From contig JAVWOV010000002.1 in the NCBI GenBank assembly GCA_036636255.1, forward strand, positions 1-28,805: a stretch of 28,805 nt of DNA, given 5' to 3'. The notes beneath the pieces are model-generated. The model did not search any database. It was not told the origin of the DNA and saw only the letters and a list, made by a program, of their open reading frames with translations. Shown here piece after piece: positions 16,698 to 22,396 of this stretch (position 1 is the stretch's first letter; each line of letters opens with the position of its first letter). This stretch comes from Bacilli bacterium. GTDB lineage: Bacteria; Bacillota_I; Bacilli_A; RF39; UBA660. The translations under genes and the position numbers were made by a program.

Positions 16698-17234
16698 TTG
16701 AATGATAAAGCACGGGTGATTGATGATGCTTTGCAGGATACGGTTAATAAGTATTATTTGAAGGTTAAGAGTAATAAAAAGTTAACAAATTTATATATTA
16801 AATTATTAAGTAGTGTGATTGAGGGAAATTATGCATGTATTACGTCTTATGGCAATGCACGAAATAATATGGAACAACTTGGACATATGGTTATTATAAT
16901 GGAGTTAATGAAGAATATCATTAAGGTAAACTCTTTTTATAACAGTGATGATGATTATATCCCTCTTAAAACTAATAAGTGTTTAAAGGATAATAATTTA
17001 AGTGTTTCAGAAATTGAATTTTTAATTTATAAGGAGATTTTGCGAAATAAGAGTGATGATGTATTTGATCTTTTGAAGAAAAATAAGTTTATTTTGTTGG
17101 CTTGTATTATTTCTTTTGTTGATGCTAGATATAACGAGAAGACAAAAATTAAAAATTTGGATATTGTTAGAGATTATAATGATTTAATGTTGCTTTCACA
17201 ATTAAATCGTTCACAAGATCAATTGATGGTATAA
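16698..17234 (+). CDS. Hypothetical protein (178 aa)
   Basis: Open frame with TTG start after an AAGGTGA RBS; own promoter candidate; no motif recognised. Confidence 0.65.
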   Translation: MNDKARVIDDALQDTVNKYYLKVKSNKKLTNLYIKLLSSVIEGNYACITSYGNARNNMEQLGHMVIIMELMKNIIKVNSFYNSDDDYIPLKTNKCLKDNNLSVSEIEFLIYKEILRNKSDDVFDLLKKNKFILLACIISFVDARYNEKTKIKNLDIVRDYNDLMLLSQLNRSQDQLMV

Positions 17235-17468: not shown

Positions 17469-18752
17469 ATGATAAGTATTAATTTTATACGTGAAAACAA
17501 AGAAATAGTGTGTGAAAATATTAAAAAGAAATTTCAAGAGGATAAGTTACCTTTGGTTGATTTGGTACTTGATTTAGATAAGCAGATTCGTTTGCTTAAG
17601 CAAGAAGGTGATCTTTTGCGCCAAGAGAAAAATACGCTAAGTAGTTTAATTGGTGGTTTAATGCGAGATAAAAAGGTAATAGAAGCTAATTTGAAGAAGG
17701 AAAGAGTTATAGCAATTAATAGTCAGTTACTGGTTTTAGAAGCTGATCAGTTAAAATTAAGTAAGAATTTAAGAGATAACATGTTAATTATTCCTAATAT
17801 AATTGATGCTTCCGTTCCTCTTGGCAAAGATGATAGTTGTAATGTTGAAATCAAAAGATATCTTGAACCATTTGTTCCTGATTTTGCCATTCCTTATCAT
17901 ATTGATATTTTGAAACGTTTGAAAGGTATTGATTTACAAAGTGCTAGGAGGGTTGCTGGCAATGGCTTTTACTATTTAATGGGAGATATTGCTAGATTGC
18001 ATTCAGCTGTTATTTCTTATGCTCGGGATTTTATGATTGACAAGGGCTTTACTTATTGTATTCCCCCTTATATGATTAGAGGTGATGTTGTTACAGGCGT
18101 TATGAGTTTTGATGAAATGGATCAGATGATGTATAAAATAGAAGGAGAAGATTTGTATTTGATTGGTACTAGTGAACATTCTATGATTGGTAAATTTAAG
18201 GATCAAATGCTTGATAAAAAGGAATTACCGTATAAAATGACTTCTTATTCTCCTTGCTTTCGAAAAGAAAAGGGAGCTCATGGTATTGAGGAAAGAGGTA
18301 TTTATCGTATTCATCAGTTTGAAAAACAAGAAATGATTGTAGTTTGTGAACCAGAATGTGCTGCATCATGGTTTGATAAATTATGGGGCTTTACGGTGGA
18401 GTTATTTGTTTCGATGGAAATACCGGTTAGAACCATTGAATGTTGTAGTGGTGATTTGGCTGATTTAAAGGTAAAAAGCTACGATGTAGAGGCTTGGAGT
18501 CCTCGTCAAAAAAAATATTTTGAGGTAGGTTCTTGTTCTAATTTAGGTGATGCTCAGGCACGTCGATTAGGTATTAGAATTAATGGACAGAAAGATAATT
18601 ACTATGCAGCTACTTTAAATAATACAGTGGTGGCTCCACCACGAATGTTGATTGCTATCTTAGAAAATAACATTCAAAGCGATGGAAACGTTAAGATACC
18701 TAAGGTTTTAGTGCCATATATGGGAGGAAAAGAGTTTATAAAAGCAGATTAG
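17469..18752 (+). CDS. serS: Serine--tRNA ligase
   Basis: N-terminal coiled-coil arm, LYLIGTSEH, motif 2 CFRKE...RIHQFEKQE, motif 3 TLNNTVVAPPR, DG.VKIP..L.PYMGG. Confidence 0.98.
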   Translation: MISINFIRENKEIVCENIKKKFQEDKLPLVDLVLDLDKQIRLLKQEGDLLRQEKNTLSSLIGGLMRDKKVIEANLKKERVIAINSQLLVLEADQLKLSKNLRDNMLIIPNIIDASVPLGKDDSCNVEIKRYLEPFVPDFAIPYHIDILKRLKGIDLQSARRVAGNGFYYLMGDIARLHSAVISYARDFMIDKGFTYCIPPYMIRGDVVTGVMSFDEMDQMMYKIEGEDLYLIGTSEHSMIGKFKDQMLDKKELPYKMTSYSPCFRKEKGAHGIEERGIYRIHQFEKQEMIVVCEPECAASWFDKLWGFTVELFVSMEIPVRTIECCSGDLADLKVKSYDVEAWSPRQKKYFEVGSCSNLGDAQARRLGIRINGQKDNYYAATLNNTVVAPPRMLIAILENNIQSDGNVKIPKVLVPYMGGKEFIKAD

Positions 18753-18776
18753 TGCATAGACACTAATCTGCTTTTT
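18741..18776. terminator. Bidirectional intrinsic terminator
   Basis: 14-bp perfect stem AAAGCAGATTAGTG / CACTAATCTGCTTT with a 6-nt loop, between convergent serS and the sortase gene. Confidence 0.92.
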
Positions 18777-18778
18777 CA

Positions 18779-19321
18779 TTACTTTTTAATAGCTGTAATG
18801 ATAAGTCTTTTATCATCATTATTAGTACATGTTATTAAGGTTAAAATCTTTTGGTTGTTTGTGGTTTTTAATATTGTTGTATCATTTTTAAAAACTTCTT
18901 TTTTATTAGTTACAATATAAGTCTCTTTTTGTTTACTTTTAAGAATAATGGTTGTTCCTAATGTTATATGATGTAATTTTCCAAATACATAATCAACATT
19001 ATGACCAGCTAGAACAATGTTATCAATCAAATTGTTAATATTCCCACTTACTAAGCCGACATAATATTGGTCTAAGGTTTTTTGGTCAGCAGTTGGAGCA
19101 ATGATACGTTTTATTTTTAAGTCATCTATTATAATATAATTAAGATTATCATCGGTTGAAATTTTACCACTTTTATAATCTTTTTCAATAATCTTTGTAT
19201 GTTTTTTAATATTATTATATTTTTGATATTGATTAAAGGTTATGTAAGATAGGGTGATAATTAAAATTATTAGGCCAATAATTTTAATTATTTTCTTTTT
19301 AAACAATATAATCCTATCCAT
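18779..19321 (-). CDS. Sortase (class D-like)
   Basis: N-terminal TM anchor, NIVLAGHN (His), LTLITC (Cys), KRLII (Arg). Start approximate; overlaps the upstream adhesin gene by 34 bp. Confidence 0.9.
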   Translation of the reverse strand: MDRIILFKKKIIKIIGLIILIITLSYITFNQYQKYNNIKKHTKIIEKDYKSGKISTDDNLNYIIIDDLKIKRIIAPTADQKTLDQYYVGLVSGNINNLIDNIVLAGHNVDYVFGKLHHITLGTTIILKSKQKETYIVTNKKEVFKNDTTILKTTNNQKILTLITCTNNDDKRLIITAIKK

Positions 19322-20169
19322 AAAAATAACATGCTACTGATATTTTTTCTGTGGTTTGGGTTATTAGTTTTTGGTAAAATATCTTCAATAATTGGCTTTT
19401 GTTCTATCATTTTATCTTTTACATTTATGGTAAATTCACTTTGTTTTTTTATGTTTGTTCCTATCGACCCAATTGTTTGATGGTTAGGGGCAGAATAGAC
19501 TAATAGATTCTTATTGTTTTTTATATTTTGTTCTAAGATGATTAAAAAGTCACCACTTTTTAATGGTTTAATAAATAGTTGGTTTGCTTCTTTTCTGATT
19601 TCAAAGTTGTCATTTTTAATTATGTCATAATTTTTCAAAGTGTTGGTTTCATCGGTTATGATTAATTCTTCATTGGTAGTAGCATTAAATGTTTGATTAT
19701 TAAAAGGCTTAGTATTAATTAAATCAATAATTTCTTGCTTGTATTTTGTAGTATCTATTACATTACCATTTGGAAAAATTTGATCAGTGAAATAAAAGTC
19801 TTTGGTACTTGTGTGTTCCCAAATCAATTCTTGAGCAGCCATGTAATAAAATTGATTTTGATGATTTTCATATTCATAACCATAATAAGCTATTTGGTTT
19901 ATGTAGTCGATATCAGCCGGGGTATAGGTTTTAGTTAAATATGTTTGATCTTCGTGATAGTTATTTTCGCCAGTGATTATTAATAAGCTTGGGTCAAGAC
20001 AATATGCAAAGTTTTTATCAGCATATATATATCCTAGTTGACCCGACAAAATCTTATCACCAATTGGTCTATTTGAGTAAATATTATCAATATATTGTAC
20101 CTCAACATTGATAGCTTTAATACTGGGAATAAAAAATAGTAAACAGCAAATAATAAAAATTTTTTTCAT
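19288..20169 (-). CDS. Cys-Gln thioester domain (TED) surface protein with sortase sorting signal
   Basis: Signal peptide, AYCLDP (Cys57), AQELIW (TQxxhW-like), HQTI (candidate thioester Gln231), then LPKTN + hydrophobic stretch + KRK; GGAGG RBS. Confidence 0.8.
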   Translation of the reverse strand: MKKIFIICCLLFFIPSIKAINVEVQYIDNIYSNRPIGDKILSGQLGYIYADKNFAYCLDPSLLIITGENNYHEDQTYLTKTYTPADIDYINQIAYYGYEYENHQNQFYYMAAQELIWEHTSTKDFYFTDQIFPNGNVIDTTKYKQEIIDLINTKPFNNQTFNATTNEELIITDETNTLKNYDIIKNDNFEIRKEANQLFIKPLKSGDFLIILEQNIKNNKNLLVYSAPNHQTIGSIGTNIKKQSEFTINVKDKMIEQKPIIEDILPKTNNPNHRKNISSMLFLWIGLYCLKRK

Positions 20170-20339
20170 ATGACATCCTCCTTCTTTTATAGTTTAGTAG
20201 ATTTTATTATGATAGGCAAACGAATGTTTTGGTAAATCACTATTTTTTTTAATAATAATTTTCTTTATGTATTAGAGTATTTATGGATATTGATTAAAGT
20301 AAAAAGACTTATTGTTAAAGTTAGTTATTTTAAAACATA

Positions 20340-20368: not shown

Positions 20369-20414
20369 AATATTTAGTAAAGGATACTATATGTATCAAA
20401 ATAGGGAGGTATTT

Positions 20415-21233
20415 ATGCCTGAGTTACCGGAAGTTGAGACAGTTAAAGAGACGTTAAAACGAATTATTATTTCTAAAAAAATTATTGATGTTAATGTTTA
20501 CTGTGATAATATTGTTGCTTACCCTAGTAAGGAAATATTTGTTAAAAAGCTTATTGGACAGACCATTAAAGATATTAAACGACGTGGGAAATGGCTTTTA
20601 TTTGAACTTGATGATTATTATTTATTAAGTCATTTGCGTATGGAGGGCAAGTTTAATTGGAAAAAGACAGGTAAGCGTAGTGTTCATGAACATATAATTT
20701 TTGTTTTTGCCGATGGTCAGTTAAGGTATCAAGATACGCGGAAGTTTGGACGCATGCATTTAATTAAAAAAGACGAACTTTATGTGAACAAGCCTTTATC
20801 GTTATTGGGATTAGAACCCTTTGATGAAAAACTTACGGTTGATTATTTAAAACAATGTTATAAAAATAAAAAATTACCGATTAAATCAGTAATTTTGGAT
20901 CAGAGTATTATAGCCGGTATTGGTAATATTTATGCAGATGAGATTCTTTTTTTGAGTGGAATTAATCCATTGTTAAAGGCTTGTTGTTTAAATGATGATT
21001 TATTGGATAGTATTTTAAAAAATACCCGAAAAGTTTTGTCTCGAGCCATTTTAAAAGGGGGGACAACAATTAGAAGCTATAGTTCCAGTGAGGGGGTTCA
21101 TGGCCGTTTTCAGCAAGATTTATTGGTCCATACGAGGGCTGGTCAAAAGTGTGTAATTTGTTTTAGGATAATTATTAAGATTAAGGTTAATGGTCGTGGC
21201 ACTTATTATTGTCCAAATTGTCAAAAATTATAG
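20415..21233 (+). CDS. mutM: Formamidopyrimidine-DNA glycosylase
   Basis: N-terminal PELPEVET, RRGKWL, HLRMEG, DTRKFG, LDQSIIAGIGNIYADEIL, C-terminal C4 Zn finger; ATG 20415 after GGAGGT. Confidence 0.97.
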   Translation: MPELPEVETVKETLKRIIISKKIIDVNVYCDNIVAYPSKEIFVKKLIGQTIKDIKRRGKWLLFELDDYYLLSHLRMEGKFNWKKTGKRSVHEHIIFVFADGQLRYQDTRKFGRMHLIKKDELYVNKPLSLLGLEPFDEKLTVDYLKQCYKNKKLPIKSVILDQSIIAGIGNIYADEILFLSGINPLLKACCLNDDLLDSILKNTRKVLSRAILKGGTTIRSYSSSEGVHGRFQQDLLVHTRAGQKCVICFRIIIKIKVNGRGTYYCPNCQKL

Positions 21234-22353
21234 GGGTGTTTTTATATTCCTTTTCAATTAAATTTTTTTGATCTTTCTTGTTTAAAACTGAGGCATAAAT
21301 AGCCGTTATGCGTAGTTCTAGATCTAATTGTGGTTTATACTTAGTTAAAAGGGGTATTTTAATATCTTTTTTTATGTTTTTTAAGTGTTTTTGTCCGAGG
21401 TTATTAAAACCTAATACGCGTATATATGTTATATGGGTATTTGCTTTAGCTTCTTCTTTGGTGAAATTGCATAGGATGTGAATTAGCATTCTTTTTATTT
21501 TATTATATGTATAGCGTTTTGTTTTTATGGCTTGAATTAGTTCTTCACTGCTATTAACTTTTAGAATGTATTTTTTTATTCTGTTTTCAATTCCTTCATC
21601 TACTGTTTGATATTTACTTAGATCTTTATCGCTTATTATTTTATATTTTATTAAAGAAAAGTAGTTTTCGATTGTTAGGGCTTTTTTTATATATTGACTA
21701 GTTATCTTGGGAATGTAGTTAGTTATATTTTGTTTGTTTTTTAAGGCAATACGGATGCTTGTAGCACTGGTTATATTTGCTTGTAATTTTGTTTCATGAT
21801 AGTTGTTAGTTCTTTTTATACAGATAGGTATTATGTTACTATTGGTGGTTATTATTTCACGTATGTAGCTTATGGCGAGGATGTCGTTGGGGGTGTTTAT
21901 TTCAATATTATTAAAGTGTTTTAGGGCTTTTGATAAGGCGGTGGGGTAGTTGATTCCTTGTTTTAGATATATTTTTACTTTTTCTTGATATTCTTTGGTT
22001 GTTTGAATTTGGGCTAATTGAGTTAGGACAGTTATATTATTTAATTCACTACCAAAAATTATTTTATCTACTTTTAGATGATTTAGTATTGTTATAGCCC
22101 CATGGGCGAATATGTCGGCACTTTGGGTAGAAAAAGTAAATGGTAATTCGATTATTAGGTCTATACCCATTTTTAAGGCTATTTTTGTTTTGTCCCATTT
22201 ATTTATAATGGTTGGTTCGCCTCTTTGTAGGAAACTAGCACTCATGATTAAAATGATTGTATGATTAGGACAAATTTTTTTTACTTCATTTAAGTGATGC
22301 AAGTGTCCGTTATGAAAGGGACTGTATTCACATATTATTCCTACTGTTTTCAT
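21187..22353 (-). CDS. tmcAL: tRNA(Met) cytidine acetate ligase (HIGH-type nucleotidyltransferase, YlbM)
   Basis: GIICEYSPFHNGH, SASFLQRGEP, ELP..FSTQSADIFA, PNDILA, SATSIR, TKRYTYNKIKR; ATG 22353 after GGTGA; divergent from yceD-rpmF as in Bacillus. Confidence 0.9.
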   Translation of the reverse strand: MKTVGIICEYSPFHNGHLHHLNEVKKICPNHTIILIMSASFLQRGEPTIINKWDKTKIALKMGIDLIIELPFTFSTQSADIFAHGAITILNHLKVDKIIFGSELNNITVLTQLAQIQTTKEYQEKVKIYLKQGINYPTALSKALKHFNNIEINTPNDILAISYIREIITTNSNIIPICIKRTNNYHETKLQANITSATSIRIALKNKQNITNYIPKITSQYIKKALTIENYFSLIKYKIISDKDLSKYQTVDEGIENRIKKYILKVNSSEELIQAIKTKRYTYNKIKRMLIHILCNFTKEEAKANTHITYIRVLGFNNLGQKHLKNIKKDIKIPLLTKYKPQLDLELRITAIYASVLNKKDQKNLIEKEYKNTPIIFDNLDNNKCHDH

Positions 22354-22396
22354 TAATATCACCATGTATATAATAACATATTTTTAGTAATAATGC

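Follow-up and report, generated by a model that had tools for sequence, protein, structure and literature searches.

The stretch of DNA analysed here, referred to as the window, comprises 28,805 nucleotides (positions 1 to 28,805 of contig JAVWOV010000002.1, assembly GCA_036636255.1) of a Bacilli bacterium of the GTDB lineage Bacilli_A; RF39; UBA660, and is one of the 80 contigs of an 801-kb genome (88.5% complete). It carries a two-gene operon encoding a surface protein that consists of a thioester domain (TED) without a stalk, together with a sortase of its own. We consider it likely that this operon makes a minimal covalent surface hook, in which a TED head is anchored to peptidoglycan by the dedicated sortase and no stalk intervenes. 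The features that an earlier, sequence-only reading of this DNA had placed at the locus, among them a signal peptide, a YC motif, an LPKTN signal and a 34-bp overlap with the sortase gene, were all borne out to the base by a sequence check. The two genes are as follows:

19288..20169, minus strand: TED gene, encoding a 293-aa stalk-less Class II thioester-domain surface protein (Pfam TED, profile match to 6FX6, AlphaFold2 (AF2) model and Foldseek)
18779..19321, minus strand: sortase gene, encoding a 180-aa membrane-anchored protein (Pfam Sortase, TIGR01076 and AF2)

The proposal that the first protein is a Class II-like TED was confirmed by profile and structure comparisons. The Pfam TED model PF08341 matched residues 55-135 at 28.4 bits (cut-off 22; 30.9 bits in the whole-genome scan), and a profile built from an alignment of 20 homologues (A1) retrieved a single solved structure from the PDB at E<=1, the Staphylococcus aureus SaTIE-TED 6FX6 (E=9e-23), with an alignment spanning query residues 28-259 and chain residues 17-241 and running through the Class II insert. 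The same structure was the top and sole match at E<=0.001 when the AF2 model (predicted local distance difference test score, pLDDT, of 82.5) was searched with Foldseek (E=9.5e-15), although identity in the structural alignment is low (17%). The seven-stranded beta-sandwich insert of ~75 residues that defines Class II is present in both the profile alignment and the AF2 model, whose strands span residues 160-251 (the last at 243-251), and the beta-rich segment remarked on previously is this insert. The alternative that the beta-rich C-terminal half forms an independent, ester- or isopeptide-bonded stalk domain was ruled out by the 6FX6 profile and by Foldseek. The whole mature part of the protein is therefore one Class II TED. 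Its parts and reactive residues are located at the following positions:

20113..20169, minus strand: Sec signal peptide MKKIFIICCLLFFIPSIKA (MKK...SIKA), residues 1-19, read from the sequence, with cleavage predicted after Ala19
19999..20001, minus strand: Cys57 codon TGT, putative thioester cysteine in the YCLD motif, of the [YFL]C-hydrophobic-hydrophilic type (invariant in A1; aligned to SaTIE Cys296)
19819..19836, minus strand: AQELIW, residues 112-117, the TQXX(hydrophobic)W motif of helix 2, next to the thioester (Q113, E114, I116 and W117 invariant in A1)
19477..19479, minus strand: Gln231 codon CAA, putative thioester glutamine on a late beta-strand (invariant in A1; aligned to SaTIE Gln467, 6FX6 chain position 218)

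Cys57, Gln113, Gln231, Pro266 and Thr268 are invariant in A1, as is Ala19. The SaTIE-TED construct comprises Gln254-Gly502 and its thioester bond joins Cys296 to Gln467 (PMC6194298); in the profile alignment Cys57 falls on 6FX6 chain position 47, which is SaTIE Cys296, and Gln231 on position 218, which is Gln467, so that the pair named from the sequence alone corresponds to the crystallographic one. Gln113 within AQELIW was considered as the thioester glutamine and was ruled out by the same alignment and by the description of TQXXfW as an accessory motif rather than the source of the bonding glutamine (PMC6194298); the threonine of this motif is replaced by alanine throughout the family of the window protein.

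The absence of a stalk is evident from the space left at the C terminus. The TED fold extends to residue ~251 and LPKTN starts at residue 265, leaving ~13 residues between them (33 residues separate Gln231 from Leu265); residues 261-278 are disordered in the AF2 model, and no second Pfam domain was found in the protein. After signal-peptide and sortase processing the mature protein would comprise residues 20-268, essentially a bare domain. A sister-clade protein (L013), the nearest longer relative, is collinear with the window protein over residues 1-248 and again over 250-267 (VKDKMIEQKPIIEDILPK versus VLDKIILEKPIIIEDIPK), and carries ~119 extra residues between these segments, the size of one stalk module; the earlier remark that the protein has almost no stalk is upheld by this comparison. 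The sister clade consists of 414-566-aa proteins, likewise with an adjacent sortase; SpaA/CnaB-type stalk domains occur in the longer relatives, and SpaA domains were present in all ten ESM Atlas structural neighbours listed. Among the closest structural neighbours of the window TED there were also Atlas clusters of ~900-1000 aa in which TED, SpaA and Sortase domains lie in one chain, that is, an adhesin fused to a sortase.

A maximum-likelihood tree of TED regions placed the short proteins in two separate clades, one of three species that includes the window protein (100/100) and one of 38 species (100/100). The root of the tree is not known, and the topology forces at least two changes of state in stalk presence, whether loss or gain; because the long architecture prevails in the wider family, stalk deletion is the simpler reading. 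We advance, as a tentative and on balance doubtful proposal, that the stalk was lost at least twice and to some advantage, and that the bare TED serves for covalent docking at contact range, or for cross-linking at the level of the wall, being kept close against a thin wall by a private sortase that reads LPxTxN. If true, the bare TED would lock the cell to what it already touches, as opposed to fibrillar TIE adhesins, which fish at a distance; the gut Bacilli of 0.8-1.3 Mb that carry it are probably partner- or host-dependent.

A linker of 13 residues puts the reactive site, by an estimate from general geometry, only a few nanometres from its attachment point, which confines the action of the TED protein to contact range or to the interior of the wall. 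The second of these settings leads to an explanation that shares the anchoring and differs in the use: the product could be a reactive protein embedded in the wall, comparable to IsdC with its haem, and could serve to cross-link the envelope of its own cell or to trap polyamines and other small amines. The very short linker and the loss of the stalk in two separate clades speak for it, and there is a precedent in a small buried protein with the non-canonical signal NPQTN and a co-encoded dedicated sortase (IsdC/SrtB; PMC8225981). Against this, the Class II beta-sandwich already lends the head some height, and stalked relatives exist within this TED subfamily, an argument that across the wider family the target is external. 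We regard the wall-embedded role as unlikely, and retain the surface hook as the preferred reading.

Anchoring of the hook would depend on a C-terminal signal with two parts:

19363..19377, minus strand: LPKTN sorting motif, residues 265-269, read from the sequence, with cleavage predicted after Thr268
19291..19341, minus strand: hydrophobic segment ISSMLFLWIGLYCL and KRK tail, residues 277-293, read from the sequence (AF2 helix at 279-292)

The hydrophobic segment and charged tail are conserved in the homologues of A1. The LPXTG pentapeptide is absent, with LPKTN in its stead, and no match to Pfam Gram_pos_anchor (PF00746) was found in the TED protein. Orthologues carry LPNTSN, LPNTEN, LPNTTN, LPNTQN, LPNTKN or LPNTSD where the window protein has LPKTNN, and the sister clade carries LPNTYNY and LPNTVNY. 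The motif predicted from the orthologues is LP[NK]Tx[ND], with position 5 free (S/E/T/Q/K/N) and position 6 either N or D; the previous description of the sortase as Asn-tolerant was thus imprecise, in that position 5 varies and the constraint lies one residue further on. In such an LPxTx(N/D) signal the residue past the scissile threonine is free and the next one is fixed. LPKTN itself is not new as a sorting signal: Enterococcus faecalis EbpB has the identical pentapeptide, with SrtA as its presumed anchoring enzyme (PMC3708956), and Streptococcus agalactiae LPXTN proteins depend on SrtA (PMC8225981). The large short clade of 38 species has VPxTG instead (VPNTG, VPDTG or VPSTG, sometimes with S, E or L at position 5) and another sortase subtype; that signal type and sortase subtype go together across clades is suggestive, the clades being interrelated and the association carrying no statistical test.

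The non-canonical signal and the missing Gram_pos_anchor match would also fit a C-terminal segment that is a plain membrane anchor, with the motif left uncleaved and the sortase serving other substrates; TIEpLS20, moreover, is a Class II TED adhesin that is not coupled to a sortase (PMC8092201). This we hold to be very improbable, since Pro266 and Thr268 are invariant across the 20 homologues while their flanks vary, the sortase gene overlaps the TED gene in 41/41 loci, and no other LPxT substrate was found in the genome.

The product of the second gene matched Pfam Sortase (PF04203) at 65.7 bits (cut-off 26.6) and the generic sortase model TIGR01076 at 43.4 bits, above its cut-off of 39.35, this being the sole NCBIfam model passed; the Pfam match, like those of the TED protein to Pfam TED and 6FX6, is far better than chance would give. 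All class-specific NCBIfam scores were far below cut-off (SrtD-LPxTATN, 44.1 versus 140 bits; class D, 41.6 versus 165; class C, 29.4 versus 160; class E, 25 versus 160), and a family profile compared with solved sortases fitted class A (S. aureus SrtA, 80.7 bits) and class D (Clostridium perfringens SrtD, 79.4 bits) equally well; the enzyme is therefore left unclassified. Its AF2 model (pLDDT 90.9) shows an N-terminal helix (residues 2-51) and a compact catalytic domain of ~120 residues, corresponding approximately to residues 55-180, for which IEDILPKTNNPN are candidate substrate peptides. The catalytic residues were assigned as follows:

19001..19003, minus strand: His107 codon CAT, in LAGH (invariant in 23 adjacent sortases)
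18827..18829, minus strand: Cys165 codon TGT, in TLITC (invariant in 23 adjacent sortases)
18806..18808, minus strand: Arg172 codon AGA, putative catalytic arginine, seven residues past the cysteine (equated with the arginine of C. perfringens SrtD by analogy to a related sortase that was aligned with 4D70)

The predicted His107/Cys165/Arg172 triad is intact. Sortases that lack the triad arginine would be unusual. In the sortases paired with VPxTG-type TED proteins, aligned to SrtD (4D70), the histidine and cysteine are invariant and the arginine-aligned position holds Arg in ~18 species (DRQLVV), Lys in ~17 (DKQLVV; loci L008, L011, L014, L016, L023 and others) and Leu or Met in ~7 (NTN[LM]QTVY; loci L015, L019, L032, L035, L079, L080 and L082), the latter two groups lying 3' of TED genes. 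An invariant glutamine follows this position, and its apparent replacement of the catalytic arginine in a MAFFT alignment was ruled out as a one-column offset by the SrtD alignment.

To place the pair in its wider family, relatives of the TED protein were collected by word-indexed and exhaustive searches, giving 791 cluster representatives at E<=0.001. Lengths of 360-1300 aa and an N-terminal TED are the rule among them, and within the best 150 there are ~8 complete proteins as short as 283-311 aa. A total of 80 loci were taken from species-representative genomes, nearly all of them uncultured gut Bacilli, 'Tenericutes' or 'Candidatus Coprosoma'-type metagenome-assembled genomes (MAGs). With a short TED gene defined as one of 330 aa or less (40 loci plus the window), an overlapping downstream sortase open reading frame (ORF) of ~180-210 aa with the TLITC signature was present in all 41 short TED loci; nine of these paired sortases were missed by phmmer and recognised by inspection. 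Two congeners (54-57% identity) keep the order fpg...TED-sortase...serS, and the genes around the pair in these congeners (murI, a GNAT-like gene and others) are unrelated to it, none being a pilin gene.

Dedication of the sortase, which the sequence-only reading had also put forward, is further supported by the remaining sorting machinery of the genome. Three sortases are encoded in total, and the two others belong to class B (179 and 190 bits against a cut-off of 153.75; TIGR03064) and have NPxT substrates. A scan of all ORFs for C-terminal sorting signals yielded three other candidates, with NPNTG (458 aa), NPNTS (444 aa) and NPKTA (381 aa), and the window protein, the only LPxT substrate found, adjoins the sole non-class-B sortase. 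No class A sortase was found in this 88.5% complete genome, and all sorting in its 0.8 Mb therefore appears to be done by specialised sortases. The 458-aa NPNTG protein, which has a Listeria-Bacteroides repeat, is divergent to an adjacent class B sortase. A peptidoglycan acceptor for the proposed anchoring reaction exists, given that the genome encodes peptidoglycan functions (five penicillin-binding protein, seven Mur-ligase and MraY matches); the same genes rule out a wall-less organism, which low GC content and the tiny genome might have suggested.

Several observations concern these other sorted proteins in their own right. The class B sortases (C28:4153-5022 and C46:5276-6385; loci L086 and L089) have long N-terminal extensions and measure 289 aa and at least 369 aa, and the 381-aa NPKTA protein is encoded on contig C39. 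The 444-aa NPNTS protein is a second TED protein (C5:21418-22752, minus strand; locus L087:119-1453), for which no BLASTP similarity to the window protein was detectable. Between its TED and its anchor lie approximately three 33-residue Cys-rich repeats (...KNHEQCSKDNTCSKEEKSEYEAC...), which may form an undescribed short stalk.

A further possibility is that the TED is a tip or cap subunit, Thr268 being joined by the adjacent sortase to a lysine of a pilin or other polymer encoded elsewhere, so that the stalk is supplied in trans. All 23 adjacent sortases give weak class C matches, the large short clade has VPxTG signals reminiscent of pilin-type ones, and the MAG is incomplete; TED proteins do serve as pilus tips (Cpa; PMC6194298). 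The class C score, at 29 versus 160 bits, is nevertheless far under its cut-off, the other sorted proteins of the genome carry NPxT signals paired with class B sortases, and the sole invariant lysine outside the signal peptide (K144) is also found in SaTIE, which is not a pilin. Furthermore, no pilin-like gene adjoins the pair, either in the window or in those close relatives that were inspected one gene at a time, and three assemblies show the pair alone between housekeeping genes. We judge this arrangement quite improbable, and the earlier suggestion that the protein caps a polymer encoded elsewhere is accordingly disfavoured relative to direct anchoring of the hook.

At the level of the locus, the ribosome-binding site, the 34-bp overlap of the two ORFs and the terminator together define a self-contained two-gene operon among housekeeping genes, with fpg divergent on the 5' side of the TED gene and serS convergent at the other end. 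Its signals are:

20206..20236, minus strand: promoter-like -35/-10 pair, 5' of the TED gene (consensus scan, 9/12 matches; a weak call, such matches being common in this AT-rich region)
20176..20183, minus strand: ribosome-binding site AAGGAGGA, 6 nt before the ATG (20169), read from the sequence
18740..18775, no strand assigned: hairpin with a 15-bp stem, a two-way terminator common to the convergent serS

The hairpin starts three bases past the sortase stop codon, and three terminator-like sites were found where 0.3 were expected. One NCBI MAG and two Sequence Read Archive runs, assembled independently, contain the identical protein with like gene calls, and in all three assemblies the TED-sortase pair is all that was called between the housekeeping genes. 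The genome (GC content 28%) uses the standard genetic code, with TGA as a stop and 26 in-frame CGG codons, by which an alternative code or CGG shifting was ruled out. Elsewhere in the window, the 3' ends of fpg (20391-21233, plus strand) and of the convergent tmcAL-like HIGH_NTase1 gene (21187-22365, minus strand) overlap by 47 bp (21187-21233), and a 178-aa ORF upstream of serS (16698-17234, plus strand) is kept beside serS in both congeners (E=8e-79 and 9e-41).

Domain identity, conservation of the reactive residues, lack of a stalk, the intact sortase triad, the operon structure, the strict gene pairing across species and the wall genes are observed; how the bond forms, where the signal is cut, which peptidoglycan acceptor is used and what is targeted we infer as follows. 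The 293-aa precursor would be exported by its Sec signal peptide and fold into a single Class II TED, in which the Cys57-Gln231 thioester would form autocatalytically. The C-terminal hydrophobic segment and KRK tail would retain the precursor in the membrane, where the co-translated sortase would cleave LPKTN after Thr268; the TED protein would then be transferred to a peptidoglycan precursor. A target amine would attack the thioester to give an intermolecular isopeptide bond, with the reactive head lying within a few nanometres of the wall attachment point. In SfbI the amine-thioester step can reportedly be reversible and pH-tuned (PMC13685950).

Several points weigh against this scheme. Superposition of the AF2 model on 6FX6 is moderate (template modelling scores 0.54/0.64; root-mean-square deviation 5.2 A), and the pairing of Cys57 with Gln231 rests on the 6FX6 alignment. 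The hydrophobic segment is short (~14 residues), and because the sortase reaches no class-specific NCBIfam cut-off, its class does not disclose whether the acceptor is wall or protein. A head on a ~13-residue linker could be buried in a Gram-positive wall of normal thickness, and partner genes could be absent from the assembly, which covers 88.5% of the genome in 80 contigs.

The role of TEDs in commensals is still unclear, and here the head is the whole protein, conserved in ~40 uncultured gut species with very small genomes. This shows that one biological use, at the least, can do without the stalk. The operon also offers the smallest natural pair of a TED (~250 residues) and a sortase (~120 catalytic residues) for studies in biochemistry or protein ligation.

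Compared with known systems, the window protein shares with TIE proteins the signal peptide, the N-terminal TED and the C-terminal sortase signal, and lacks their repeat stalk (PMC4450167). TEDs have been described as N-terminal heads of stalked proteins (PMC4450167, PMC6194298, PMC9210967), most of which also bear arrays of isopeptide or ester repeats by which the TED is displayed at a distance from the surface (PMC4450167). With SaTIE (6FX6), BaTIE (6FWV) and EfmTIE86 (6FWY) it has in common the fold class, the YC motif, a thioester glutamine on a hairpin from the beta-sandwich insert and the QxxxW helix motif (PMC6194298); the TEDs of those three are carried by stalks of three to six isopeptide or ester domains, with LPXTG and a housekeeping sortase, whereas the mature window protein consists of its TED and nothing else. 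Wall anchoring has been reported or inferred for E. faecalis EbpB (LPKTN) and S. agalactiae ScpB (LPXTN), whose pentapeptides are identical to that of the window protein or of its type (PMC3708956, PMC8225981). Their anchoring is attributed to a housekeeping class A sortase, whereas the window genome has none that was found and its sortase is gene-coupled to the substrate. The class D pairs (Bacillus anthracis SrtC with BasH/BasI and LPNTA, Bacillus subtilis YhcS with YhcR, and C. perfringens SrtD) likewise combine a small dedicated sortase with one or two LPxT-non-Gly substrates, and the best NCBIfam matches of the window sortase are class D models; its scores are nevertheless far under the class D cut-offs (44 versus 140 and 42 versus 165 bits), and the motif is LP[NK]Tx[ND], not LPNTA. 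In S. aureus, IsdC reportedly stays within the wall. It, too, is small, sorted through a non-canonical signal (NPQTN) and encoded together with a dedicated sortase, SrtB (PMC8225981), but IsdC is a NEAT haem carrier and SrtB belongs to class B, whereas the window pair has a TED cargo and a minimal sortase (~120 catalytic residues) equally near classes A and D. The literature searched yielded no account of a sorted protein that is made of a TED alone and has a sortase of its own. Taken together, the pair is a real and conserved architectural variant, without a stalk, of the known TED adhesin and dedicated sortase cassette rather than a new kind of system.

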